DNA of 34,644 bases, taken from a virus. Positions 4,586 to 31,838 of this stretch are shown here, one piece after another. The notes beneath the pieces were generated by a model that saw only the letters and a list, made by a program, of their open reading frames with translations, was not told where the DNA came from and searched no databases. The stretch is taken from positions 71,267-105,910 of IMG/VR virus record IMGVR_UViG_3300031965_000001, one strand, 5' to 3'. A program made the position numbers and the translations under genes. The first letter of the stretch is position 1. Each line of letters starts with the position of its first letter.

Positions 4586-5200
4586 ATGAAAATACCAAGA
4601 TGGCAAACTCCAGAGCGCAAGGCATATATGAAAGCATGGTATTTGGACAATCCTCGTGATCGTCGAGCTTATAGCAAGGCTTACCATGAATCTCATAGGG
4701 AACATGAGCGAGCTTATCGTATGAAGAATAAGAAAAAACTATCAGCCCGAAAACGTGCCTATTATCAGGCTAACAGAGAGAGGATATTGGCATATTGTAA
4801 AAAATACGCTTCTGAAAACCGTGAACGAGTTTCAGCTTATCATCGTAGGCACTATGCAGCTAACAAAGAGAGAATAAAAAAGAACGTATCTTCTTATAGA
4901 AAAGCTAACCCTGAAAAGAAAATACACCTCGAAAATCGCCGCCGAACTCGAAAATTCAAAAATGGTGGGTCTCATACTTTAGAGCAACGACAGGCGAAAT
5001 TCGAGCTTCTTGGAAATGAGTGTTTTTTCTGCAATGAGAAGGGGAATCTCAGCATTGATCACGACATTCCCCTAAGCCGTGGTGGTGGCGACGGAATCGA
5101 CAACATACTCCCAGCCTGTCGCTCCTGTAACTCAAAGAAGAATAACAAAACAGCATCGGAATATATCGAATTCCTCTTCAGAGAAAACCAAAAAAGCTAA
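4586..5200 (+). CDS. HNH endonuclease with N-terminal Tyr/Arg/Lys helical repeats
   Basis: CFFC...DHDIPLSRGG.D.IDNILPACRSCNSKK. Confidence 0.92.
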   Translation: MKIPRWQTPERKAYMKAWYLDNPRDRRAYSKAYHESHREHERAYRMKNKKKLSARKRAYYQANRERILAYCKKYASENRERVSAYHRRHYAANKERIKKNVSSYRKANPEKKIHLENRRRTRKFKNGGSHTLEQRQAKFELLGNECFFCNEKGNLSIDHDIPLSRGGGDGIDNILPACRSCNSKKNNKTASEYIEFLFRENQKS

Positions 5201-5865
5201 AACAGCTTTCCCTGATTTAACATCCTTTTCCCAGAATCATACCTCTTAGACTCTCCCTTGGGGTACGGTTGCACTTTATATCGAAGACTGTCTTTGATTT
5301 TTTGGGAACACCCAACGAAATAGATATATCGGTGTTTTCTCGGTCGGTCTTTCAGATAAAAATCATCCCCGTATTTTTCTCTCATATACTGCGCCCTGTT
5401 TTCCTGACCCCTTGATTTATCAGCTATTGTTGCCCCATGTAAATGCTCCATTCCTTTAATTTTCCAGTCGGTTCTTTTTTCGCTCAGTCCAGTATAAATG
5501 AAATTGCACGCCTGATAGATATAGCCGATATGCCCTTGTTCTGTATCAGCATAAGAAACTATAATAGAGGGCTTCGAGAGCATTCTTAATGATCTCCCAA
5601 CGAGAAATGACGCGGAATTTTTCGGGGAATTTTCGTCCACAATTAGCCTATTGAGTTCCATTACATGTTTTGCGTACTCTTTTCCGCATACCCCTTTCAA
5701 AAGAGATGAAGAAGCTGGAGTTCCATAGCTCACAACTCCAGAAAGGAATCCGTCGATGTATAGACCAAATGCGTAAGAAATACTGGGTATCCTTTTTGCG
5801 TAATGTCTTTTGAGACACCATGTTTTCATCTGTTCGTTTGGTATTGGTAAAACTTCTTTGGACAT
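5197..5865 (-). CDS. Mom-family (GNAT-fold) DNA adenine modification protein
   Basis: HY...FGLY...GVVSYG.P...ELNRL...KNSASFLV.RSL...IVSYAD..QGH.GYIYQA.NF.YTG motifs. Confidence 0.82.
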   Translation of the reverse strand: MSKEVLPIPNEQMKTWCLKRHYAKRIPSISYAFGLYIDGFLSGVVSYGTPASSSLLKGVCGKEYAKHVMELNRLIVDENSPKNSASFLVGRSLRMLSKPSIIVSYADTEQGHIGYIYQACNFIYTGLSEKRTDWKIKGMEHLHGATIADKSRGQENRAQYMREKYGDDFYLKDRPRKHRYIYFVGCSQKIKDSLRYKVQPYPKGESKRYDSGKRMLNQGKLF

Positions 5866-7980: not shown

Positions 7981-8074
7981 AACTCGCCGTATAATCCCCG
8001 AAAAAAATCAGATGGTACCAGATTACCTAAACGATATTCAAACTTCACCTACCCCCATCAGAATGGCGAGATTT
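7981..8074 (+). repeat. ~94-bp dispersed intergenic repeat, copy 1
   Basis: shares TTACCTAAACGATATTCAAAC, CCTACCCC and GAATGGCGAGATTT with 21208-21300. Confidence 0.85.
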
Positions 8075-9494: not shown

Positions 9495-9747
9495 TGAACA
9501 CAGTACTGATCACCATTATGCTATCCAGTTTTGTATGTTCTGTCCTAATAGGTTCGTACATCATCTTCTCCGAAATCAGCCTGAGAAAATCTCTTATCAC
9601 AATTTTTTTGGGGTTAGCTATTGCCTTTTTTGTTTTGGTACGCTAGGATATCACCAGTTCTTTGAAAATGAGTCTTCTGTCTTGGCATGGCTGAACAAGT
9701 CTTTGTGCGAAGGACTAAGGCACAATGAATCGTCCGAAGGGGCGTGA
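9457..9747 (+). CDS. hypothetical protein with two CxxC motifs
   Basis: CMFC...CLFC; overlaps the end of the upstream gene. Confidence 0.55.
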   Translation: MYKMEKIPILKNDEHSTDHHYAIQFCMFCPNRFVHHLLRNQPEKISYHNFFGVSYCLFCFGTLGYHQFFENESSVLAWLNKSLCEGLRHNESSEGA

Positions 9748-9812
9748 AGTTGGTTCCCGAAAGATATTACCTATCTTTCATTTCGCTCTAGGGATGCAGG
9801 TAATATCTCGAA

Positions 9813-10115
9813 TTGATCTCCGAGATGAAAGACTCCTGCTGCCAAGACAGAGGACTTAGAGAACAATGGCAATTGGAATTGTTAAGAGAAAGTGGTATTA
9901 TGTGTCCTGTGTACGAACATGACAATGCGAGGCTCGTAGAGACCTACAGGGAACAGCTTCAAAAAAACAGCGGGGACGAACCCAGAATGGAAAAATTAAT
10001 GGAGGATATCGAGGAATCTCACTACATGGATGGATACATAACAAGTATCCAATTTGAGAGCCTATTTTCTCTCTACCAAGAATTAACAGGGGACTATTCT
10101 GTTTTGCGCCCCTAA
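9813..10115 (+). CDS. hypothetical protein
   Basis: 100-aa acidic ORF in a + strand run; start uncertain. Confidence 0.6.
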   Translation: MISEMKDSCCQDRGLREQWQLELLRESGIMCPVYEHDNARLVETYREQLQKNSGDEPRMEKLMEDIEESHYMDGYITSIQFESLFSLYQELTGDYSVLRP

Positions 10116-11162: not shown

Positions 11163-11492
11163 CTAGCGCATAGAAGATGAGGAGCTGCTGCTACCGGTAG
11201 CGGTCCCGTCCCGATGTCCACCCGCAGCAATCCCGTTCGGATTCGATATTATCCCCATTCCGAATGCAAGGGATACGCATAGGGCCCCTGTTAGGAAAGC
11301 GTGAAGGGAGGCCCGCCGCCGGATAGGTACTATGCGGCTTGTAACACTCGCGCGTACTCTCTTTTTCATGGCGCTTTTTTTGTCGCGTTGCGTCCTACCC
11401 ATATATTTCACGTGTTCCGATCGCCACGTAGTACCGTTTTTTTTCGCCGATGGTGTATTGTTAATCCGTATTATAGTATTAAGATCGTGCAT
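11163..11492 (-). CDS. hypothetical basic protein with one TM
   Basis: 109 aa; leader ttttccccttcacacaATG. Confidence 0.65.
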   Translation of the reverse strand: MHDLNTIIRINNTPSAKKNGTTWRSEHVKYMGRTQRDKKSAMKKRVRASVTSRIVPIRRRASLHAFLTGALCVSLAFGMGIISNPNGIAAGGHRDGTATGSSSSSSSMR

Positions 11493-11522
11493 TGTGTGAA
11501 GGGGAAAAGAAAAAAAGAAATT

Positions 11523-11705
11523 CTATGAATGACGCAAGTCATGCCATGCATTCCTACGTTGCTCTATATATTCACGGAAACGTGAAGGAGAAAATTTGTC
11601 ATTGTCCCGCTTAAAACTGTCGCAGAGGGAGGAAATAAGCTGATCGCTTGCTTGCCAGTCTGCCAGTGAAGAGGCGATCATATTATAGTATTTACGTGAA
11701 AGCAT
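11523..11705 (-). CDS. small conserved phage hypothetical protein
   Basis: MLSRKYY.MIA...L...F.RDN.KF...RF pattern; CU-rich leader. Confidence 0.75.
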   Translation of the reverse strand: MLSRKYYNMIASSLADWQASDQLISSLCDSFKRDNDKFSPSRFREYIEQRRNAWHDLRHS

Positions 11706-11732
11706 TAGAGGGAAAGGAAAGAAGTAAAAAAA

Positions 11733-11990
11733 TTATCGTGCAAGTATCGCTAAGCCTTTTTCGTGTAGCTCTTTTATTTTTTTCTCTGTTAGGCGTTTGA
11801 CTGTACCGTGTTCATGCCCTACGCCTGTAGGTACACTTTCGATCATGTTCCCGCGTTGCGTATAGGACCATTCACTAGTACGCACTCCGTTTCCAGCGTA
11901 TGCGGTCCGATATATTTTTTTGTTCTCTTCATCCTGCGTTTCCGCCTTCCATCCCACTAGTGCGCTTTTTCTGTAGTACGTTTTCATCAA
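11733..11990 (-). CDS. hypothetical protein
   Basis: 85 aa; CU-rich leader. Confidence 0.7.
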   Translation of the reverse strand: MMKTYYRKSALVGWKAETQDEENKKIYRTAYAGNGVRTSEWSYTQRGNMIESVPTGVGHEHGTVKRLTEKKIKELHEKGLAILAR

Positions 11991-12063
11991 AAAGAGAGGA
12001 AAAGAAACAAAAAGCCCGTTGGCATGATAATGAACCTAAAAATTGCCGATGATATAACTCTCT

Positions 12064-12213
12064 TTACTTCCATATTTTCGACGTAAAGCGGTCGATTGCC
12101 TCCATGTCTCGCCGCTTGCCTAGTTCTACGGCTTCGTGCTCTGCCTGACGTAGCGCGGAGCGGTTGAGATTTTCCATGTCGGCGTTGGTTGTTGGTTGTT
12201 CTTTTTTGTGCAT
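12064..12213 (-). CDS. small hypothetical protein (49 aa, below the ORF-track cutoff)
   Basis: MHKKEQPTTNADMENL...; leader attttccccttcaccctATG. Confidence 0.6.
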   Translation of the reverse strand: MHKKEQPTTNADMENLNRSALRQAEHEAVELGKRRDMEAIDRFTSKIWK

Positions 12214-12252
12214 AGGGTGAAGGGGAAAATGTATAAAAGAGAAAACGGTGAA

Positions 12253-12846
12253 TTATCGGTAAAAGTCTTCCATCAAGTCGTATATATATTTTGAAAGCCC
12301 ACCGCTTTCGTCTATTTTATTTTGTATCATGCATTCTATAATTGTCCCGACCTGGTTATGATCGAGTTCTTCCGTGTCGTCAAGATTCCAGTCGTCAATA
12401 TAACTTGAATAATGCGATGAAAAGCCGTCGCACGATGTGAAGTCTTCTTTTATTTTTTCACGTAGTTTTTCACGGTCAACCATCTTGACTAGTCTTTTCA
12501 CTTCAGCCTCTTCAATATCCGCAAAAATCCTATCGGTTGCAAAATTGTATTCTCGCGGGCTATCGAGGCTTTCATACTTCAATTCTATTTCATTGTCTTC
12601 CGAGAATCTTTTTGCATACTCTTCGGCGTATTCTTTCATCATTCCTTTATAGTCTGCTCTATCTTCTCGCTCTTCCCAAATTGCATCAATCCTCTTTTCG
12701 TACTCCTCTTCCGTTTCTTTGTCTTTTTTAGGGTTATCATCTTTCAAGTTGTACGCATCAGACTCCGATAGGCATAGTGCCTCTTCCACCTTTTCCATAG
12801 ACCACGACTCATAGAATCCATCGAATGGTATTGTGGTGCTTTGCAT
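12253..12846 (-). CDS. highly acidic phage protein (candidate DNA mimic / anti-restriction)
   Basis: about 28% D+E by hand count; IPF.GFYES, SPREYNF.TDRI and FTS.DGF.S motifs; first gene after tandem promoters. Confidence 0.6.
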   Translation of the reverse strand: MQSTTIPFDGFYESWSMEKVEEALCLSESDAYNLKDDNPKKDKETEEEYEKRIDAIWEEREDRADYKGMMKEYAEEYAKRFSEDNEIELKYESLDSPREYNFATDRIFADIEEAEVKRLVKMVDREKLREKIKEDFTSCDGFSSHYSSYIDDWNLDDTEELDHNQVGTIIECMIQNKIDESGGLSKYIYDLMEDFYR

Positions 12847-12965: not shown

Positions 12966-13069
12966 ATTATAGTTTACAGTTTTATATGGTGCAAGGAACA
13001 GGGCTTTACAATTCTATTGTTTCTGTTCTTTACTATACATATTATAGTATAGTTTTATACTATTGTCAA
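12966..13069 (-). promoter_or_regulatory. two tandem near-consensus sigma70 promoters
   Basis: TTGACA-N17-TATAAT (13069-13041) and TTGCAC-N17-TATAAT (12994-12966); palindrome ATAGTATA-N4-TATACTAT at 13044-13063. Confidence 0.9.
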
Positions 13070-13301
13070 TATCGTATATGGCTATTCTAAGCCCTTTTTC
13101 TTGCTTTTTGAGGCGATCTGTGCTATACTGTAGACCATGAGTAAACTACAGAATAGGCTACAATATGCGAAAATAGTCAAATTTTCGGCAAGATTTGAAA
13201 GTGTCATATTTTCAGAATATGGCAAATACAGGAATGAGAGGCAAGCGTGTAGCAAGCGTGTGGCAAAAATCTGGGCAAAAAGTTGGCGAGAAATCTGATA
13301 C

Positions 13302-13395
13302 AAAAAACCGTAGTTGCCGCATGTAGTCGACGACCACGGTTCTCTGCCTTTTTTATTCCTTACCCCACCATTCTATGCACAAAAATGGTTGAGAT
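13302..13395 (-). ncRNA. candidate ~94-nt small RNA
   Basis: promoter TTGACT-N17-TACCAT (13430-13402); 5' hairpin starting at the predicted +1; purine-rich linker; terminator hairpin + U6; no meaningful ORF. Confidence 0.65.
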
Positions 13396-13652
13396 GAAGG
13401 AATGGTAGCAGAAACAATGTCGAGAGTCAAGGGTTTAGGATGAAAAAATCTGTATGTCTGTATTTTCTTGCGGCGCGAGAGAATAGAATACAATCATCTC
13501 CATTATTTACGATCTCTCACACTATAACACTCTCACAAAAATAATATCAGTCTCACTCACAAAACGATTAGTGTCACAAAATAAGAAATAAGAAAGACCA
13601 TAATACCCATGAAATCATTTACTTCCATTGAACGATCATGTATATTCATTCC

Positions 13653-14051: not shown

Positions 14052-14120
14052 TGATGTGATCATATTGTGATGTTATCAATTTGACATGATGTGATCATTA
14101 TAATAAAATTGATGTGATCA
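14052..14120 (+). promoter_or_regulatory. promoter overlapped by four TGATGT(G/T)ATCA boxes
   Basis: TTGACA(14081)-N17-TAAAAT; boxes at 14052, 14068, 14087, 14110. Confidence 0.85.
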
Positions 14121-14145: not shown

Positions 14146-14505
14146 ATGGCACGAAAGAATCAGCAGCATGTATCCACTATCGCATGGGAGAAGGCGGCGC
14201 AAAAGGAGTTAGCGCAAAGCATCGCAAAGAAGCATGGCTTCAAGAGCCTATCTCGATTTATGAGACAGTCTCTAAATTTTATTGTTTTGAAAGAAGCTGA
14301 GGCTGGTTCATTTTTTGCGGAAATAATCGAAAAACAAAAACAACCCGTTTCTCTCGCTCAAAAATTCGATTCTGTCACTTTCGATAGTGATGTGATCAAT
14401 TCTGAAAATGATGTGATCATTGATAAGGTGGCTACACATAGCGAAGAACCAAAGGAGAAGGCGCAAGGTAAAGAATTGCTAGCACCATGGGATATAGAGG
14501 AATAA
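14146..14505 (+). CDS. ribbon-helix-helix (CopG/ParG-like) DNA-binding protein
   Basis: beta strand VSTIAW, helix KELAQSIAKKHG, then SLSRFMRQSL; acidic tail; two more boxes inside the gene at 14388 and 14409. Confidence 0.65.
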   Translation: MARKNQQHVSTIAWEKAAQKELAQSIAKKHGFKSLSRFMRQSLNFIVLKEAEAGSFFAEIIEKQKQPVSLAQKFDSVTFDSDVINSENDVIIDKVATHSEEPKEKAQGKELLAPWDIEE

Positions 14506-17791: not shown

Positions 17792-18316
17792 TTAGGGGTT
17801 TTGTATATTTATTGTCTTAATTCCTGTTATGGTGTTTGCATCAAAAATTATTTTCTCTCCCCAATCTTTGTATGTCTTCGGTTCTTCCATTCTTTTGTCT
17901 TCCTTGGAATATCGTACAACTGTAATCTGGTATGCCTTTTCTTCGTTAAACCTTTCAAGAAGTTTCTCGTAAAAAATATCTGTATGACCTTTCAACAATC
18001 CCTTTATCCTTACCTCATATACATATTCTAAATCCCCCTGTCCATCGGGTTCCCAATCTGCATTCTCATAGTGTCTAGGAATATATTGTTTTTCTAAGTC
18101 TGCAATCCCCATTGTGCTAAAATAGTTAAAAGCATCCTCGTCAACCGCCTTCCTCAGAATATCAACCAACTCTAATCCAACACCTGTTTCATATCCGTCA
18201 TGGTGATGGTAATAATTTTTCTTTTCTTCCCGTTCCTTTACTTCGGGATTGTCCGTTGCGCTTCCAAAAATATATTTATCTTCTGCTGATACGATAACCA
18301 TTGATCTTGTACTCAT
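17792..18316 (-). CDS. conserved phage hypothetical protein (MSTRS...Y.H.DGY..GVG family)
   Basis: motif recognition; promoter TTGACT-N17-TACACT at 18368-18340. Confidence 0.78.
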   Translation of the reverse strand: MSTRSMVIVSAEDKYIFGSATDNPEVKEREEKKNYYHHHDGYETGVGLELVDILRKAVDEDAFNYFSTMGIADLEKQYIPRHYENADWEPDGQGDLEYVYEVRIKGLLKGHTDIFYEKLLERFNEEKAYQITVVRYSKEDKRMEEPKTYKDWGEKIIFDANTITGIKTINIQNP

Positions 18317-18388
18317 AGTGAAGTAAGGAAAGTATCTAAAGTGTAGCGGAAGTTCATATAAAAGTCAATGAGTAAGGCTTTACTTTTC

Positions 18389-18828: not shown

Positions 18829-19167
18829 CTACTTGGAAATGACTTGAACAATAAAGGACTCAGAAACGGGAGACTTGAATTGGTTAGCGTCAATCTTCTT
18901 AGAGGCGAAATAGTTATTCAGCTTTTCGGAGTCAAATCTTAAACTTCCAGCCCTGTAGGAAGCTGTTATCATTACATTGTCACCATCAGCACTTGTGATC
19001 TTCCTATCTTTAATGAACTCTTTGACACGGCTCCATAATTTCCCCGCCCTATCGCTTGCGAGTTTTGCGGCAGCGGCGAGTTCAGCCAGTTTTGCCATGT
19101 CTGGCTTCTTCGACGCTTCCAGTTCATCCATGACCTGTTCATGCTTACTGAATAGAATGTTCTCCAT
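18829..19167 (-). CDS. hypothetical protein
   Basis: 112 aa; promoter TTGACT-N17-TAGACT at 19228-19200. Confidence 0.75.
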   Translation of the reverse strand: MENILFSKHEQVMDELEASKKPDMAKLAELAAAAKLASDRAGKLWSRVKEFIKDRKITSADGDNVMITASYRAGSLRFDSEKLNNYFASKKIDANQFKSPVSESFIVQVISK

Positions 19168-19255
19168 GTGAATAGTTGGTAAGGAATAAGACTGAACTCA
19201 GTCTAGCAGATCATCATAGAAAAGTCAATCATTTTATGATTGTAAATAAAGGCTT

Positions 19256-19498
19256 TTATGGGAAAAACCATATCATCAATCCCCAAAAAATTATATTCCC
19301 TACCACTTGAAACCATATTTCCCAAGGTTCGTATTTTTTGAATGGGTAAAAATCCAACGGCTCTGGCTCATAGGGTTGTTGCTCCAACCATTTTTGATAT
19401 TCTTCGATGGACATTCCCTCTTCTTTTAATTCTTCCCTCTGTTTTTTCAAACTCTTTTTTGGGATTATGCCTAGAGGGGAAACAATTTTTTCCATCAA
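19256..19498 (-). CDS. hypothetical protein with C-terminal TM
   Basis: hydrophobic C-terminus; overlaps the upstream stop. Confidence 0.65.
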   Translation of the reverse strand: MMEKIVSPLGIIPKKSLKKQREELKEEGMSIEEYQKWLEQQPYEPEPLDFYPFKKYEPWEIWFQVVGNIIFWGLMIWFFP

Positions 19499-19818
19499 TT
19501 AAAATATCCGTCAAGGGATAACTTGTCTTCTTCCAAAATTTTCGTTACCTTTTCAATTTTTCTTATTTTCTGTAAAACCAATAAATGATTGTTCCCGTAA
19601 TCGTCTGAAAATTCACTGTATCCGTTCCTCCTGTTCCATCTGTCTGTTTTATCATAGGCGTTTCTTATGTGTTCTCTCATTTCTTCGTAAGAAGAAAATT
19701 CTAATTGTAGATTTCCCGTTAGCTCATCATTTTTGTATAAAAGAATCGTGAGCATATATGCCGTTTTTTCCTCTTCGAGCACGTTGCTAGGCTTCTTCGG
19801 TTTTTGAGTGGCGTACAT
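19495..19818 (-). CDS. hypothetical protein
   Basis: 107-aa ORF. Confidence 0.7.
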   Translation of the reverse strand: MYATQKPKKPSNVLEEEKTAYMLTILLYKNDELTGNLQLEFSSYEEMREHIRNAYDKTDRWNRRNGYSEFSDDYGNNHLLVLQKIRKIEKVTKILEEDKLSLDGYFN

Positions 19819-19836
19819 AAATATGAATGAATGGAA

Positions 19837-19995
19837 TTAAAAAGGTAAATCAGGAAGGGAAATTTCATATATCGCACAATTCTCTTTTTTACAGTATGTG
19901 CAATTTATCGCGATAACGTGTAGTTTTTCGAGAACAACGGTTCCTTTTTCTTTGTCGCCTTTGTAACAATCTTCGCATATTTGAGCGGTGTACAT
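19837..19995 (-). CDS. small zinc-finger protein (52 aa, below the ORF-track cutoff)
   Basis: MYTAQICEDC...CTYCKKENC...DLPF; CU-rich leader. Confidence 0.6.
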   Translation of the reverse strand: MYTAQICEDCYKGDKEKGTVVLEKLHVIAINCTYCKKENCAIYEISLPDLPF

Positions 19996-20034
19996 GAGTG
20001 GCTAGGGAGGATGAATAAAATATTTGCCTTTGGA

Positions 20035-20577: not shown

Positions 20578-21069
20578 CTATTTCCTGTTCCAAATAAATT
20601 TGTATTCTTCATCGTATTTTCCATTACAACAGCTACCACAAGCCAATGTTTTCCTAATTCTGTACCTTTCTATTTTTCTATCGCATGAAGGGCAAGTCCC
20701 TATCCATATTTTTTCGGGTGCCACTATCTCGCTACCATAACATCGAAGTCCATTACATCCTATACTCACCGCTATTTTTTGCCATTTTCTGTTATGCGAA
20801 AATTCCCTTGTTTCTTCCCAATGTAAAGCGTGTGCTATTTCATGTAGGATAGTATCGCGCACATCGTCCTCACTATTTAATTCTGTTAGGTGACGGGAAA
20901 GCGTAATTTTTCTTCCGTGTTTTCCTGTAGGATTTTTGCAGCTTCCAAATCTCCTTTTTGCGTTATCAAATTCAAAAATCCATCCGTGACCTTCCATATT
21001 ACTCCCATCTGATAGCCCGTGCTCTTTTATTAGGCTGATAGCCATTGATTGTGCATCGTTTAGATTCAT
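20578..21069 (-). CDS. SprT-like zinc metalloprotease with C-terminal zinc ribbon
   Basis: RRFGSC...ITLS...DTILHEIAHAL....H...WQ..A..IG; CPSC...CGSC; promoter at 21120-21092. Confidence 0.9.
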   Translation of the reverse strand: MNLNDAQSMAISLIKEHGLSDGSNMEGHGWIFEFDNAKRRFGSCKNPTGKHGRKITLSRHLTELNSEDDVRDTILHEIAHALHWEETREFSHNRKWQKIAVSIGCNGLRCYGSEIVAPEKIWIGTCPSCDRKIERYRIRKTLACGSCCNGKYDEEYKFIWNRK

Positions 21070-21207
21070 GGTGAAGGAAGAAAGTTACTAAATACTAGCA
21101 GAAAAACATATAAAAGTAAATAGCTTTTCATTGATTTTACACATAGTTATTTTTTAATATGTTATGAATTTCAGATTCTCGCATATATAAGGATATAAAA
21201 ATATCAA

Positions 21208-21300
21208 AACTCGCTCTATAAGAGGCGTTAAAAAATCAGAATAGGATTTTACCTAAACGATATTCAAACAGCTCCTACCCCTATAGGAATGGCGAGATTT
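21208..21300 (+). repeat. ~93-bp dispersed intergenic repeat, copy 2
   Basis: colinear with 7981-8074; identical 21-mer at 21249-21269. Confidence 0.85.
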
Positions 21301-21509
21301 AGACGGGGAAATTTAGGATGTAATGGCATTTGAAGAATCCGAAAAGCGTGGAAAATAGGTCTGGTAAAGCGTGGACCAAGCGTGTGGCAAAAATTTGGCT
21401 CAAAATCTGGGGAATTTCTAGAAAAATCTGGAGAATTCTGTTGACATTTTTTGGTGTAAATAGTAGAATGAATTTGAAATTTTATTTTATATTAATAACT
21501 ATTAATTTT

Positions 21510-22188: not shown

Positions 22189-25128
22189 TTAGGATATTTG
22201 CCCGTTCCCCTCAAACTGCCCAATTATTTCAGCGTCCTTTTCTCTAAATGGCACTCCCACATGTTTGGTTCCGTAGAATTTGGAGCAATTATACAAAGAG
22301 GCGGCTACTGCATCAGCAACGTCCGATGTTCCATAGCGCGGGTGATCAATTTTATCAGTAGTTGCATGCCTCTCAAGTTGTTTAAGCTCCTCCAATAAAA
22401 TCTGGTGTTCGGGCAAAAACACCCTTTTTTCATAAATAGCGGCCTTTAGTGTTTCATACGCAGTAGGAGTGCGGACTGTGCTAATAATATCTGAGACTAT
22501 CCCATTTTTTTGTAAGGTCTGGATACTTGAAACAGAATTATGAACAAAAACACCTGCTTTCAGTGCAAAATTGTGAATCCCTTCCACTTCTATATCCCAA
22601 ACCTCATCCTCTATTCCTAAACATTCGACCTTCACGACTTTATGATTTTTAGGAGATTCCTGAAAATCCTTCCACCCTTTATACCCCTTGGCCCTAACTC
22701 TTTTAGAAATTGTTGCGTGATGAACACCCAATATTTTAGCTACCTTTGCACACTTTAAGTGAGATAGCCCAACAATCATTTCCCATGTTACAGAACTATT
22801 AAAATTACCAGCATCTTCCCCCCGATAAACGGGTCTCTTAGACATTTTTTCTCTATATTTCGGATCTGCCCACCTTTTTTTTTGTGATACGCCAACTTTT
22901 TTTCTAGTTTCCTCATTTTTCATGGGATGATTTTTTTTCATCCTTTCTGAAATAATTGAAGAATTTTTTATGTTTGCCTCTGTCATTCTTTTTGAGGCTT
23001 CCTTCCTTCTTTTTTCAGTCCAATTTTTCGTGTTTGCCTCTGCCGTTCTTTTTGAAGTTTCCTCTCTTCTTTCAGCGGTCCAATGTAACTTGGAGTGAGA
23101 ACCGTGGCCCATTATTTCTAGGTTACTTGGATCGTTGTTCATTTTATCTTCATCTATATGGTGAACAGCCATACCCTTGGGGCATCCTTTTACAAGCCTA
23201 TGCTCAAGTTTATTTTTACCAGATTTCATGTCTCTCACTCGTAAATAACCATCAGGCGTTACGCACCTATAAAACGGCATCAGACTATCTCTGGGTTTCA
23301 ATAATTTTGCCTCTACATAAGTTCCATCTCTCATCATAAATGGATGATTATCCGAACAATCTATAAATTCACCATTATCTAAAGTAATTCTCCATATTAC
23401 CTTTTTCCCAGAGCACCAAGCAGCCTTTACCCTTCTGCAACAAATTTCTCCATCTTCTTTTGAAGAATAGACATAATCCCCTTCTTTGACTTCACATATC
23501 CTCTTGTTTTTCAGAGAAAGACCAGTTATAATTTGGCCGGATTTCAATGGCATGTTGGGATTATATTCACCTTTGATACCACTAGCAATAGGTATTAGGG
23601 TACTCTTTTCGAGACATTGATAGCTGTCGAAGGTGGTCTTATATATATTCCAACCCCTCCTCTTCATTTCAAGAATTAGCTCAACAATGGAGCTGAACTC
23701 AACCTCTCTATCACTACCCGCGCCAATTCTTGCTACAGCGTCAAAGATAATAATAGGGCGACCCCCGTGTTCATTATCAAAACCCCCGAAATGACACACT
23801 GCGAACCCCGCAAAATCACCCCTTGACCCGTCTGCCCTGATTTTATTAAGTCCCAAGTCTACATGAATAAATGTAAGATCCTCTGTGGGATTATCGAAAT
23901 CAAATTCTGACAAACTCGATTTGGGTGTGAATCTGTTTTGAATTTCAACATACATGCACTTTTCTATTTCCTGCGGTCTCCTGAAGAATCGTTCTAGGCT
24001 GTTGCTGGGAATCGCACCATAGTCTCTCGCACTCAATTCGGGGGATTTTTCAAAGTCCTCCTGAAGATCGACTGGGATAATCCACACCCTTTCATCCAAT
24101 TTATTTCCATACAGTAACTTTTCTTTGTTTCTCTTCGTGGGAGAAATGTCATAGACCTTACCATCCATGACAAAATTCTGTATTTCTCGGTCATTCATTA
24201 TTCTGTAATTCTCACGATCAAAAAGAAAAACATCATCACTCATTCGATCCCTATCCTTTGCTAACCATGTTGGAAGATTAATAACATATGTGTTTTTTAG
24301 CCCAAGATGCTTGACTTCTTTAATTTTTTTATTCATAAAATCTTCTTCGTGTTTAGGACTGGATATTAGGCATATAAGCGGTTTTACCAAAGAATTTTTA
24401 TCTTTTTTGAAGCGAGAATTTATGCGGCGCTTAATTTGAGAATAGAGCATCTCTGCATGGTCCTGCCCCTCCCCCGCGCCACCAGTTTTTGACCGTAATT
24501 GCTCAACATAAAATGCCGCTTCGTCGAGAATCGCGCAGAACACATTCAACCCAAGCGCAACAGTTTTTGACGAACTTCCACAGATCATCGCAATTTTATC
24601 TTTTTTGAACCGTATCCTGTCCGACAAAATCTCCATTCCAAACTGTTTGAAGAACGGTGACTCTGAAACCATTGATGAAATCCCCTGAAAAACAACGTCC
24701 CTTGCCTGATTTAATGACAACCCCATATTCAAAAGAACAATGTTTTTATCCTGAGAGAGACCAAGATACCCGTGGGGGTACTTTAGGCAGAGGAGCTGAT
24801 GTGCCTTATACAGTAGCAAAATGCTACTTTTGAAAGATTTTCCCGAGCTGTAGCCCTCGTAATCAATCACCTCCGTATAACCACCATCCAGTATCTTCTC
24901 GCACTCAATCATGACTCTCTTAAAAACCTCTCCTTCAAGACCAAGATAATATGGGTCTAATATAAATTCAAGAACGCTAGCTGGGCGGAATCGAAATTCT
25001 GGATTATCCTGCAACCACATTTCATCCACCATTTTTTTCAGAGAGCGTGAATCCGAATTCATCACCATCTGTTCAAGATAGTCTATTTCTTTTTCGCCTA
25101 AAATTAATGTTTCACTCGTCTTCATCAA
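22189..25128 (-). CDS. terL: terminase large subunit containing an intein
   Basis: Walker A-like GYSSGKS, Walker B AILDE, coupling motif ISSP, nuclease motifs HVDLG and KIDHP..GTSDVADAVA; 619 aa after splicing. Confidence 0.9.
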   Translation of the reverse strand: MMKTSETLILGEKEIDYLEQMVMNSDSRSLKKMVDEMWLQDNPEFRFRPASVLEFILDPYYLGLEGEVFKRVMIECEKILDGGYTEVIDYEGYSSGKSFKSSILLLYKAHQLLCLKYPHGYLGLSQDKNIVLLNMGLSLNQARDVVFQGISSMVSESPFFKQFGMEILSDRIRFKKDKIAMICGSSSKTVALGLNVFCAILDEAAFYVEQLRSKTGGAGEGQDHAEMLYSQIKRRINSRFKKDKNSLVKPLICLISSPKHEEDFMNKKIKEVKHLGLKNTYVINLPTWLAKDRDRMSDDVFLFDRENYRIMNDREIQNFVMDGKVYDISPTKRNKEKLLYGNKLDERVWIIPVDLQEDFEKSPELSARDYGAIPSNSLERFFRRPQEIEKCMYVEIQNRFTPKSSLSEFDFDNPTEDLTFIHVDLGLNKIRADGSRGDFAGFAVCHFGGFDNEHGGRPIIIFDAVARIGAGSDREVEFSSIVELILEMKRRGWNIYKTTFDSYQCLEKSTLIPIASGIKGEYNPNMPLKSGQIITGLSLKNKRICEVKEGDYVYSSKEDGEICCRRVKAAWCSGKKVIWRITLDNGEFIDCSDNHPFMMRDGTYVEAKLLKPRDSLMPFYRCVTPDGYLRVRDMKSGKNKLEHRLVKGCPKGMAVHHIDEDKMNNDPSNLEIMGHGSHSKLHWTAERREETSKRTAEANTKNWTEKRRKEASKRMTEANIKNSSIISERMKKNHPMKNEETRKKVGVSQKKRWADPKYREKMSKRPVYRGEDAGNFNSSVTWEMIVGLSHLKCAKVAKILGVHHATISKRVRAKGYKGWKDFQESPKNHKVVKVECLGIEDEVWDIEVEGIHNFALKAGVFVHNSVSSIQTLQKNGIVSDIISTVRTPTAYETLKAAIYEKRVFLPEHQILLEELKQLERHATTDKIDHPRYGTSDVADAVAASLYNCSKFYGTKHVGVPFREKDAEIIGQFEGNGQIS
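22537..23616 (-). mobile_element. intein (360 aa) with HNH homing endonuclease
   Basis: FDSYQ|CL start; block B CSDNHPF; block F VWDIEVEGIHNF; block G VFVHN|S; HNH core HRLV...VHHIDEDKMNNDPSNL; NUMOD3-like repeats and an HTH. Confidence 0.93.
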
Positions 25129-29528: not shown

Positions 29529-31838
29529 TTAGACAACACCAACAACCTTTTCTATATCACCCACCTCTCCTTTTATTGTTTCTGTATCAACAACAATGCC
29601 CTTAATTAAAATAATAGTCGGAGCAGCAGAGGGGGATGGGGAAACAGAAGAAGATGGAGAAGAACTCTGACTCTCTGATGATGATGGCGAAACGGATAGA
29701 GACTCGCTCGAAGAAGGAGAGACAGAGGCAGATGGTGATATAGATGGAGAAACAGACGACGAAGGTGAGACCGAGGAGCTGGGAGAAACTGATGGAGAAA
29801 CAGAGGAAGACGGGCTTACCGAAGAAGATGGAGAAACTGATGGCGACTGACTCGATGAGGGGGAGACTGATGGGCTTTCGCTGCTACTGGGAGAAACAGA
29901 TGCGCTGGGGGACACAGATGGTGATTCAGAGCTACTTGGACTGACTGAGGGGCTTTCAGACGATGATGGTGAAACCGAAGGGCTTTCTGAGCTTGAAGGG
30001 CTTACAGAAGCCGAGGGACTAACAGATGGAGATTCACTTGATGATGGCGATACGCTGGCACTCGGAGAAACAGAGGCAGACGGGCTAACGCTGGGTGAAG
30101 CTGAAGACGACGGAGAAACGGATGCCGACTCAGAAGACGATGGAGATACGCTTGCTGAAGGCGATACGCTGGATGACGGGGAAACAGACGCACTCGGAGA
30201 AATCGAAGGGCTTACTGAGGCAGACGGGCTAACACTGGACGATGGTGAAACCGAAGGGCTTTCTGAGCTTGAAGGGCTTACAGAGGAAGAAGGCGAAACA
30301 CTTGGAGATTCTGAACTAGATGGCGAAACCGAAGCACTGGGAGAAATGCTCGGGCTTTCCGAAGAACTTGGGCTGACAGAAGAACTTGGTGAGACAGAAG
30401 GACTTTCTGAGCTGGATGGTGAAACCGAGGAACTTGGAGAGGTGCTTGGAGACTCAGACGATGATGGGGATACAGAAGAACTAGGAGAAACACTTGGAGA
30501 TTCAGAACTGCTAGGGGAAACAGAAGGAGATTCACTACTCGAAGGGGAAACAGACGCACTAGGACTAATAGAAGGGCTAATACTCGAAGATTCTATTATT
30601 TCCGTATACTTCAATATCTTAAAATCATCCGCACGTCCTGCCGTGCTTGCAAATGCCCCATGGCGCATCATGCCGCCTTGGTTTGCGAGCCATCGCTTGT
30701 TGAACCCTCGTATTTCGAGATTTCCATCAACGTAGCAATCAAAACGCCCGTCTGCGGCGTAGATGACTTTCAGAGCGTAGGTCGTTGAGTTGTTGATCGT
30801 TTTGGTGGCATATCCAAGACTAAGTAAAGTATTACTCTCATCAAACGAGTACACGCCAACAAAGTTAACGTCTGTTAAAAGACCAAGCCCTACACCCTCG
30901 CGGTTCGCCGTGCCGACAAGTTGTGAACCGACAAAGGTAAAATGGCGGTTTTCCACGCCTCCGGCGTTCCATGTACACTCGGCGGCCAGCGCGTAGACAG
31001 AGTTCACGGCAACCCCTGAGTCAATGACAGAGCGGCTGTTGAGAGCGGAGAAATTGAACTTGCCCGACCCGTCTACTTTTACATGGTTAGCCCCGCTTGT
31101 GTCCCATACCGTTCCGGCATCCACCGTATCCGGCGAACGACCGTCAATATCGGCTGTTGTCCCCGATGCCGCGTCGTGAAGGAGCAGGGTTTCGGTTCGG
31201 CTGGCAATGTCAATATCGGGGAGCGTCCGAACTTCCATGTTGTCCCACCGGGCATTGGAATCCGCAGCAGCGTTTCGGGAAAAGAAAATATATGTTTCGT
31301 CCGAAGCCGGATCAGCCGCCGCCCCAAACGCAAATATCTCCACCCCGTCTACCAGTGCAACAATCGTCCGATCTCGTACTGCCAGTCCGACACGGTATGT
31401 CTGGCCGGGGTCTATGGCATAGGGGATTGTTCCCACCTCTGTCAATGTGCCACCGATGACTTCAAAAATGATGATCGTGCCTCCGGCTTCTCCCGGCCGG
31501 AAACTTATTAACATATAGTCTTGCCGTGACGAGTCGCTTCGTGCGGCAACCGTCATTCGATTATCCGCCGTGCCGCTTACCGGATCAGCCGTGTAGTCAA
31601 TCTCAAAGATATAATCAAAGACACCTGCTCCGAGGTTGAGTTGTGCATATCCTCCCAATCCAAAACTAGTGTTGATTCTTATTTTATCGCTGCCGTCGAA
31701 CTCAACGGCATTGGCAGCCCCTTGTGTCCAAGCATTCCCGCTATCGTTTACCGTATCCGGGTTAATGCCCGCAAGGTCAGTGCCGTCAGACCTGCTGCCT
31801 CCGAAGCCGTCTTGTTCAATAGTGGTTATCTCGGCCAT
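29529..31838 (-). CDS. putative virion surface/adhesion protein: two ConA/lectin-like beta-sandwich domains, Ser/Pro stalk, short C-terminal tail
   Basis: internal duplication of D..G..PDTV..G..W, ALVDG/CYVDG and WDN/ADDF endings; ~320-aa SPS repeat; no signal peptide. Confidence 0.65.
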   Translation of the reverse strand: MAEITTIEQDGFGGSRSDGTDLAGINPDTVNDSGNAWTQGAANAVEFDGSDKIRINTSFGLGGYAQLNLGAGVFDYIFEIDYTADPVSGTADNRMTVAARSDSSRQDYMLISFRPGEAGGTIIIFEVIGGTLTEVGTIPYAIDPGQTYRVGLAVRDRTIVALVDGVEIFAFGAAADPASDETYIFFSRNAAADSNARWDNMEVRTLPDIDIASRTETLLLHDAASGTTADIDGRSPDTVDAGTVWDTSGANHVKVDGSGKFNFSALNSRSVIDSGVAVNSVYALAAECTWNAGGVENRHFTFVGSQLVGTANREGVGLGLLTDVNFVGVYSFDESNTLLSLGYATKTINNSTTYALKVIYAADGRFDCYVDGNLEIRGFNKRWLANQGGMMRHGAFASTAGRADDFKILKYTEIIESSSISPSISPSASVSPSSSESPSVSPSSSESPSVSPSSSVSPSSSESPSTSPSSSVSPSSSESPSVSPSSSVSPSSSESPSISPSASVSPSSSESPSVSPSSSVSPSSSESPSVSPSSSVSPSASVSPSISPSASVSPSSSVSPSASVSPSSSESASVSPSSSASPSVSPSASVSPSASVSPSSSESPSVSPSASVSPSSSESPSVSPSSSESPSVSPSSSESPSVSPSASVSPSSSESPSVSPSSSQSPSVSPSSSVSPSSSVSPSVSPSSSVSPSSSVSPSISPSASVSPSSSESLSVSPSSSESQSSSPSSSVSPSPSAAPTIILIKGIVVDTETIKGEVGDIEKVVGVV
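29625..30594 (-). repeat. coding Ser/Pro repeat (SPSSSE/SPSV/SPSASV units)
   Basis: regular at protein level, synonymously diversified at DNA level. Confidence 0.95.

Follow-up and report, generated by a model that had tools for sequence, protein, structure and literature searches.

A candidate antisense RNA complementary to the start regions of neighboring genes in a tailed phage

Can a short intergenic interval of a phage genome encode a stand-alone RNA directed against the translation leaders of the phage's own genes? The question is raised by positions 13302 to 13430 of the window (the whole 34,644-nt stretch of DNA analyzed here), where the original prediction placed such an RNA, complementary to the CU-rich starts of the phage. 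It makes up the final third of a virus record of 105,910 nt, the first 100 nt of which are repeated at 105,770; a soil metagenome is the only run listed for the record, and this one DNA run, which may be its source, showed no variants. Since terminase, portal, capsid, tape measure and tail proteins are encoded, the record must belong to a tailed phage, and its gene starts are of two types, either leaderless or with a pyrimidine-rich leader. On balance we lean toward the reading that the predicted 94-nt RNA is a trans-acting antisense repressor of translation of about 7 neighboring, probably early, phage genes, a view that comes from modeling of folds and duplexes and from comparison with controls.

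The locus has the layout of a small minus-strand transcription unit. Its promoter (13402..13430) consists of a −35 element TTGACT at 13430-13425, a 17-nt spacer with a TGC end and a −10 element TACCAT at 13407-13402, and ranks 11th among 211,740 positions scored with a matrix from 23 leaderless-gene promoters of the same genome, a training set that excluded it. With the usual 6-nt gap, +1 is predicted at A13395, as had been claimed. From there the predicted 94-nt RNA (13302..13395) would fold into a 13-bp 5′ hairpin with one bulged A and a 7-nt loop, an unpaired linker, a 3′ hairpin and six U residues, which reproduces the anatomy first proposed. The minus-strand fold has an energy of -37.2 kcal/mol (z -6.83), equaled by 0 of 200 shuffles; the plus strand of the locus folds at -18.8 kcal/mol (z -1.78), and 12 of 200 shuffles were as good. 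Because 8 G-U pairs of the minus-strand fold become mismatches on the plus strand, the structure favors the minus strand. Within the hairpin, a leader-like 5′ arm (nt 1-14, 13382..13395) sequesters a G-rich, anti-leader 3′ arm (nt 22-34, 13362..13374), which would be released upon target binding to judge from cofold structures. The loop, UGUGCAU (nt 15-21, 13375..13381), is the complement of AUG(C/U)AC(A/G) and the putative nucleation seed. The purine linker (nt 35-48, 13348..13361) is single-stranded, with an unpaired probability of at least 0.99 throughout, and may offer a second, largely compositional entry point. The intrinsic-terminator-like hairpin (13300..13347) has a core at 13339-13308 of -14.9 kcal/mol with a bulged inner stem, followed by U6 at 13307-13302; it can also fold back onto the purines 5′ of the stem, and a consensus terminator scan did not include this bulged hairpin among its calls. 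As modeled, then, an intergenic promoter and intrinsic terminator bound the unit, as they do in trans-encoded small RNAs. No Rfam family matched within 13302-13430 at E values up to 5, and ARAGORN and Rfam placed no tRNA, tmRNA or other known RNA at the locus.

The surroundings are rich in repeated words. Four TCACA repeats, about 16-24 nt apart, lie at 13510-13585 (plus strand) between the RNA promoter and gene 13653 and could be operators for the RNA. All five genomic copies of TGATGTGATCA are found at 14052-14120 and 14388-14419, around the promoter of and inside gene 14146-14505 (plus strand); this gene, which lies about 700 nt from the RNA, resembles ribbon-helix-helix proteins (a lead only) and likely encodes a repressor that controls its own expression. 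A block of AAGCGTG and AAAATCTG repeats is common to 13232-13300 and 21344-21430 (47 nt at 81%), with the second copy ahead of a plus-strand promoter at 21441, and may hold protein-binding sites.

The start regions that pair best with the RNA all lie on the minus strand. The best target is gene 17792..18316 (174 aa), whose leader and the AU of its start codon (18315..18330) pair over 16 of 16 nt, 3 of them G-U, at a net -19.2 kcal/mol. Next comes gene 12064..12213 (49 aa; start region 12203..12251), with a 13-nt perfect match across the AUG and a net -18.0 kcal/mol; this gene is also the probable source of the inverted copy discussed below. Genes 11163..11492 (109 aa; 11486..11520, net -16.8), 19495..19818 (107 aa; 19812..19845, net -14.7) and 19837..19995 (52 aa; 19989..20025, net -13.9) are targets in the loop register. 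The leader of gene 18829..19167 (112 aa) pairs over 12 of 12 nt at 19178..19189 (net -15.7), and TTCCTTACC occurs in the genome only in the RNA and in this leader. Finally, the leader and AU of the SprT-like gene 20578..21069 (21050..21083) pair over 15 of 16 nt (net -13.2), with a second loop-matching word at 21056-21050. The three duplexes named in the original prediction, at 18330-18315, 21083-21068 and 19189-19178, were all recovered exactly. The targets are 1-8 kb from the RNA gene, none is overlapped by it, and the pairing is imperfect. The claim that leaderless messages would be spared agrees with the two leaderless flanking genes, which hardly pair (net -0.8 and -2.2 kcal/mol).

Judged solely by promoter class and gene size, the targets are probably early genes. 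Apart from the one SprT-like protein they are mostly without known function, and Atlas, NCBIfam and a representative search returned none for those queried. No antirepressor was found among the flanking proteins with PHROGs, Pfam and NCBIfam, in a set where most proteins have no family and a remote one is possible. Direct repeats of 52 nt (88%) at 8023-8074 and 21249-21300 enclose 13.2 kb with both small-gene clusters; the left repeat overlaps a minus-strand promoter at 8041 that has no called gene start right behind it.

The complementarity to the flanking starts is real but moderate. When the full RNA was tested against 161 phage start regions, the 6 best-pairing ones all flanked the RNA gene, as did 7 of the best 8, and an energy of -10 kcal/mol or lower was reached by 10 of 21 flanking starts versus 14 of 140 others. 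For the 21 flanking starts, structure-matched controls equaled the top-4 energy in 0 of 250 cases when block-shuffled and in 1 of 250 when fully shuffled; for the single best target, 9 of 250 and 8 of 250 such controls were as good. The proposed stand-alone RNA complementary to the phage's own CU-rich starts is supported computationally. When all 163 starts were used, with no choice of cluster, none of 50 block-shuffled and none of 50 fully shuffled structure-matched controls equaled the RNA on its top 3, 5 or 10 targets, and for the mean energy over non-flanking starts 34 of 50 full shuffles were as good. The pairing is less extreme against natural sequence: among the 742 windows tested (out of 2,239), which were composition-matched, not structure-matched, 23 did as well on the top 4, 24 on the top 8 and 102 on the mean. 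When windows across the whole genome were scanned, flanking start regions accounted for 4 of the 5 best non-self matches on the minus strand, and equally strong plus-strand matches lay mostly opposite genes. On top-4 duplex energy the RNA also beats the reverse complements of all 21 flanking starts (self left out), of 139 of 140 other phage starts and of 9 of 9 starts from related contigs; among 262 complements of real host leaders, 29 equaled it. Target pairing above that of controls, which a trans-acting small RNA should display, is observed.

Where in the RNA does the specificity lie? The original prediction had credited the purine linker, with the caveat that low-complexity tracts can match by chance, and had overlooked the loop. 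Shuffles of the linker alone were as good in 49 of 120 cases on the top 4, 26 of 120 on the top 8 and 10 of 120 on the mean; shuffles of the loop alone were as good in 1 of 120. We therefore place the specificity in the loop and arm and regard the linker as mostly a matter of composition; the caveat holds for the linker, whose assigned role is not supported. The specific signal is carried by the loop, and the order of bases in the linker is of little weight. The last base of UGUGCAU faces the A of AUG, and the natural loop ranks 2nd among the 256 loops that retain the anti-AUG. With the adjoining stem bases it pairs 13 of 13 across the 12213 start, and the loop itself pairs 7 of 7, wobble allowed, with the 11492, 19995 and 19818 starts and with the word inside the SprT-like gene. 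Starts of the form AUG(C/U)AC(A/G), a motif defined post hoc after inspection, occur at 4 of the 21 flanking genes. Of the 140 other phage genes none begins in this way (Fisher p 2e-4; 1 of 140 with all wobbles), and in the host 9 of 556 genes do (p 8e-4). Because several flanking starts (including 12213, 11492 and 19995) had been added by hand after the 12213 match, most other starts being called automatically, all 34 ATGYACR sites of the genome were enumerated; an ORF of at least 40 codons and a pyrimidine-rich leader are combined only at 12213, 11492, 19995 and 19818.

In the antisense reading, two routes would lead to the same end. For starts of internal cistrons (12213, 11492, 19995, 19818 and partly 12846), the loop would first pair with AUG(C/U)AC(A/G), and the G-rich 3′ arm would then carry the pairing on into the CU-rich leader. 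Where a gene is promoter-proximal and its leader short (18316, 19167, 21069 and, weakly, 20499), the linker would serve as a toehold from which pairing invades the 3′ arm as far as the AU of the start codon. By either route the leader-mimicking 5′ arm would give way and the start codon would end up inside an imperfect duplex of 25-35 bp, with leaderless messages spared. Since the RNA shares the promoter class of its targets and both of its ends would be protected, it would accumulate alongside them, and the outcome would be a delayed shut-off or a damper. In the probable host order, Hfq was found in none of 200 genomes (the genomes are incomplete, and the control was positive in 5 of 14), which fits such long, chaperone-free pairing; an LSM search is uninformative on Hfq, being silent in E. 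coli.

How may the RNA have come about? An alignment of the plus strand of the locus with the 12213 leader matches at 39 of 53 columns and extends into the terminator arm, with a score of 43.5 (the next start scores 30); it suggests that the RNA probably arose through inverted duplication of that leader. Descent from a leader cassette could give part of the complementarity without selection; a case for recruitment of the inverted copy is made by the promoter, by the loop-framing 5′ arm and by the terminator. Searches for relatives of the RNA were negative. An exact 19-mer had 0 matches in viral contigs, and blastn against GenBank phages gave only two 24-nt chance matches. A promoter-plus-hairpin pattern hit 66 loci, with the full layout in none among the matches listed; a promoter-plus-anti-leader pattern hit 119 loci in 57 of 64 parts scanned, of which 92 were distinct and 7 passed filters, with no homolog among them. 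A single-sequence covariance model, R1, matched 0 of 5 sequences, found in 151 host-order genomes 4 weak matches that read as reversed leaders or terminators, and hit 82 viral loci with a best E of 0.29 and, among 80 metagenome loci, 11 with a best E of 0.2. On the two contigs nearest for the adjacent 197-aa gene (identities of 52% and 49%), other genes, and not the RNA interval, are found upstream of the shared gene. One look-alike of about 90 nt with promoter, hairpin, linker and terminator (L416, 1450-1579, minus strand), which lies divergent to a serine recombinase gene and belongs to a prophage whose genes have purine-rich leaders, was judged unrelated.

Other structured elements came up alongside. 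The nearest related contig (L280, 2950-3200) has a hairpin-dense non-coding stretch with a near-perfect 30-nt palindrome, and a GC-rich multi-hairpin element with a terminal terminator recurs in viral contigs L017, L033, L037, L048, L051, L065 and L075 (~601-710); the two copies tested had no Rfam match, and the element is probably unrelated to the RNA. On the plus strand at 9621-9849, a strong promoter (rank 16) precedes a structured region, a second RNA candidate with a sub-threshold Rfam match to manA (E 1.3e-4, 31.6 of 55.2 bits). Of all 96-nt segments of the genome, the one with the strongest structure (z -5.4) is intergenic, at G000 42865-43010, with facing promoters at 42915 (plus) and 42995 (minus).

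The alignment with the 12213 leader could also mean that the locus is simply an inverted-duplication relic, or an antisense RNA for a single target, regulating only 12213 with its near twin 11492, or nothing at all, with the other matches reflecting a common CU-rich leader style. The plus-strand copy does read as a leader followed by a 5-codon ORF, and about 3% of natural windows and 11% of the complements of host leaders equal the RNA. We nevertheless think this unlikely: a relic would not be expected to have a top-ranked promoter, an anti-AUG heptamer framed in a loop, 8 G-U pairs that favor the minus strand and a U6 terminator, and the flanking set is paired better by the RNA than by the complement of 12213. 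The related concern, that the locus is the decayed leader of a plus-strand gene, probably describes its origin; however, the opposite strand has only the 5-codon ORF, its best promoter within 200 nt upstream ranks 815th and the fold favors the minus strand. The position of the unit invites a further reading, namely that promoter, hairpin and terminator act as an attenuator or insulator, the RNA being a by-product: the 12846..11163 operon begins directly downstream of the unit, which is itself downstream of a convergent leaderless ORF of 53 codons (13137..13298, plus strand; promoter rank 37, no family) that stops just short of the terminator hairpin, and the unit might gate readthrough into the operon or halt transcription of the ORF. 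This we find improbable. The operon owns a 12/12 promoter, TTGACA-17-TATAAT (13041..13069, minus strand), and hence does not need the RNA as its leader; about 21 kcal/mol is lost when the terminator arm is blocked, and no alternative, antiterminator fold was found for the RNA; the hairpin on the plus strand is weak (-12.2); and the complementarity to targets would be unaccounted for.

Two more readings place the action of the RNA in the host, whose probable identity, judged from sequence, is a member of the Peribacteria. Among 80 listed relatives of the phage's IS1595 transposase, the best 4 are from Peribacteria/Peregrinibacteria (17 of 64 parts scanned), and Peribacteria-type genomes share the start style of the phage, with a UUCCC peak at -14, no GGAGG and 48 of 262 starts leaderless-like. 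As a ribosome decoy, GGUAAGGAA (from the linker with the last three arm bases) would pair with the 16S 3′ tail like a perfect Shine-Dalgarno without a start codon, occupying or remodeling the 30S subunit in favor of leaderless phage messages. The complementarity extends over 8-9 nt: UCCUUACC is present in all 12 of the Peribacteria 16S tails read and the full 9-nt complement in 7 of the 12, as counted on gene sequence, from which the mature 16S 3′ end may differ. The net energy of -4.3 to -7.1 kcal/mol is matched by 0-4 of 100 controls. These energies are, however, one third of those with phage start regions, the 16S-complementary word also occurs in the phage leaders 19167 and 18316, which accounts for its presence, the loop is left unexplained and the 16S tail is itself predicted to be paired in a hairpin, so we hold the decoy to be quite improbable. 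Equally directed at the host is the idea that the RNA masks host mRNA leaders of the UUCCC type as a class; the original prediction had raised host genes with CU-rich leaders as possible targets. Host leaders are CU-rich, with the UUCCC peak just mentioned, and some pair at -12 to -17 kcal/mol; yet over 214 leadered Peribacteria starts, drawn from relatives of the host and not the host itself (the strict set holds 18 genes only), full shuffles equaled the RNA in 9-14 of 28 cases, so that it is no better than they are, and block shuffles in 3-6 of 28, a slight advantage for the RNA; of 556 host leaders, 1 contains TTCCTTAC. Because host starts pair no better than shuffles, host-wide silencing is unsupported and a very improbable role; the pairing claim is accordingly limited to the phage's flanking genes.

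The 16S tails are of interest in their own right. In a survey of 16 loci, with 14 of 31 genomes matched, all 12 readable tails carry a YUCCUU-ACC-AGGGAR hairpin past the usual end. The base of the hairpin is C-G in 5 and U-A in 7, a covariation, and CCUCC is kept in only 2. The hairpin could sequester the anti-Shine-Dalgarno. Its AGGGAR arm complements the UUCCC leader box, a possible reversed Shine-Dalgarno by sequence; this was tried and rejected, with no covariation between leader UUCCC/CUCCC and tail AGGGAA/AGGGAG (p 0.22; 129 and 427 starts). We found no paper that describes this conserved hairpin, nor, in the literature searched, a description of the mechanism of translation initiation in Peribacteria. 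The available text of one study classes Ca. Peribacter riflensis as Shine-Dalgarno-scarce (PMC10783764), and the accessible portions of two others do not mention Peribacter (PMC6107228, PMC9297842).

Other searches speak to the lifestyle and kin of the phage. No integrase matched among the phage proteins scanned, and no prophage was found in 200 host-order genomes. The capsid has 7 relatives, all on short contigs; none were found for the terminase, the helicase, the ribbon-helix-helix-like protein or the single 197-aa query. Several genes of the window are unusual: the large terminase subunit (22189-25125, minus strand) contains an intein with an HNH domain, a Mom-family DNA modification gene (5197-5865, minus strand) is flanked by two HNH genes, and a 769-aa protein (29529-31838, minus strand) has a long Ser-Pro repeat tract and no family match.

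Early-gene turn-off in tailed phages is mostly credited to proteins. If the antisense reading is true, a single RNA acting over about 7 start regions would amount to a class switch at the RNA level, and its seeds would point to the leader features that matter in Peribacteria. More tentatively, as a proposal that we rate possible and short of probable, one chaperone-free phage RNA would shut off the early-gene class by its loop (start and second codon) and its tail (CU-rich leader) in a host without Shine-Dalgarno use; it would then be the first such regulator from a phage of Patescibacteria and a member of a recurring phage "early-off" timer design, with a tail that might dock on the 16S 3′ end.

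How does such an RNA compare with known systems? GcvB directs a G/U-rich seed against C/A-rich enhancers, and this one seed masks a common initiation element. In SgrS, as far as the source available goes, the seed likewise masks an initiation element other than the Shine-Dalgarno, the manY enhancer; unlike the RNA described here, both are chromosomal and Hfq-dependent and have no anti-start-codon loop. As for phage RNAs, sar of P22 overlaps its target on the opposite strand, and c4 is processed out of a precursor. Like the present RNA, sar and lambda OOP are phage antisense RNAs that run from promoter to terminator, at 68-77 nt, and sar blocks initiation of ant translation, according to the accessible part of a review (PMC12197685). 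Each has one target, and the overlap with perfect complementarity that defines cis-encoded antisense RNAs (OOP, sar, type I antitoxins) is absent here, where no target is overlapped. PreS of lambda and VpdS of VP882 are trans-acting, multi-target phage small RNAs; in the text available they are Hfq-dependent and directed largely at host mRNAs (10.1101/2024.10.31.621285), in contrast to an RNA whose probable host order had Hfq in 0 of 200 genomes and for which host targeting is unsupported.

The closest parallels are with CI RNA and c4. The CI RNA of satellite P4 is a small antisense RNA with sites both upstream and downstream of its own gene, and, in the portion of the source at hand, it is cut from the transcript that it controls and acts by premature termination (PMC4825925); here, the sites are the starts and leaders of separate transcripts 1-8 kb away. 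The c4 RNA of P1 and P7 is a short structured phage RNA whose exposed sequences pair around the ribosome-binding region of an mRNA of the same phage and block its translation, as the available text has it (PMC12197685). It targets the ant message in an immunity region, whereas the RNA here would address about 7 unrelated genes from its own promoter and terminator, has no Rfam match and belongs to a host without Shine-Dalgarno use. Of the features by which c4 is recognized, a match to the Rfam model and an antirepressor or immunity region were not found, and exposed segments complementary to the phage's own initiation regions are present. As far as the accessible text of these sources goes, the published phage antisense RNAs compared act on one phage message each or are Hfq-dependent (PMC12197685, PMC4825925, 10.1101/2024.10.31.621285), and no description of a phage RNA that covers the start codons of its own early genes as a class was found in the literature searched, mostly open-access main texts. 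By analogy, the RNA would act like c4 and CI yet stand outside both as they are defined, and it is best read as a c4-like multi-target antisense RNA.
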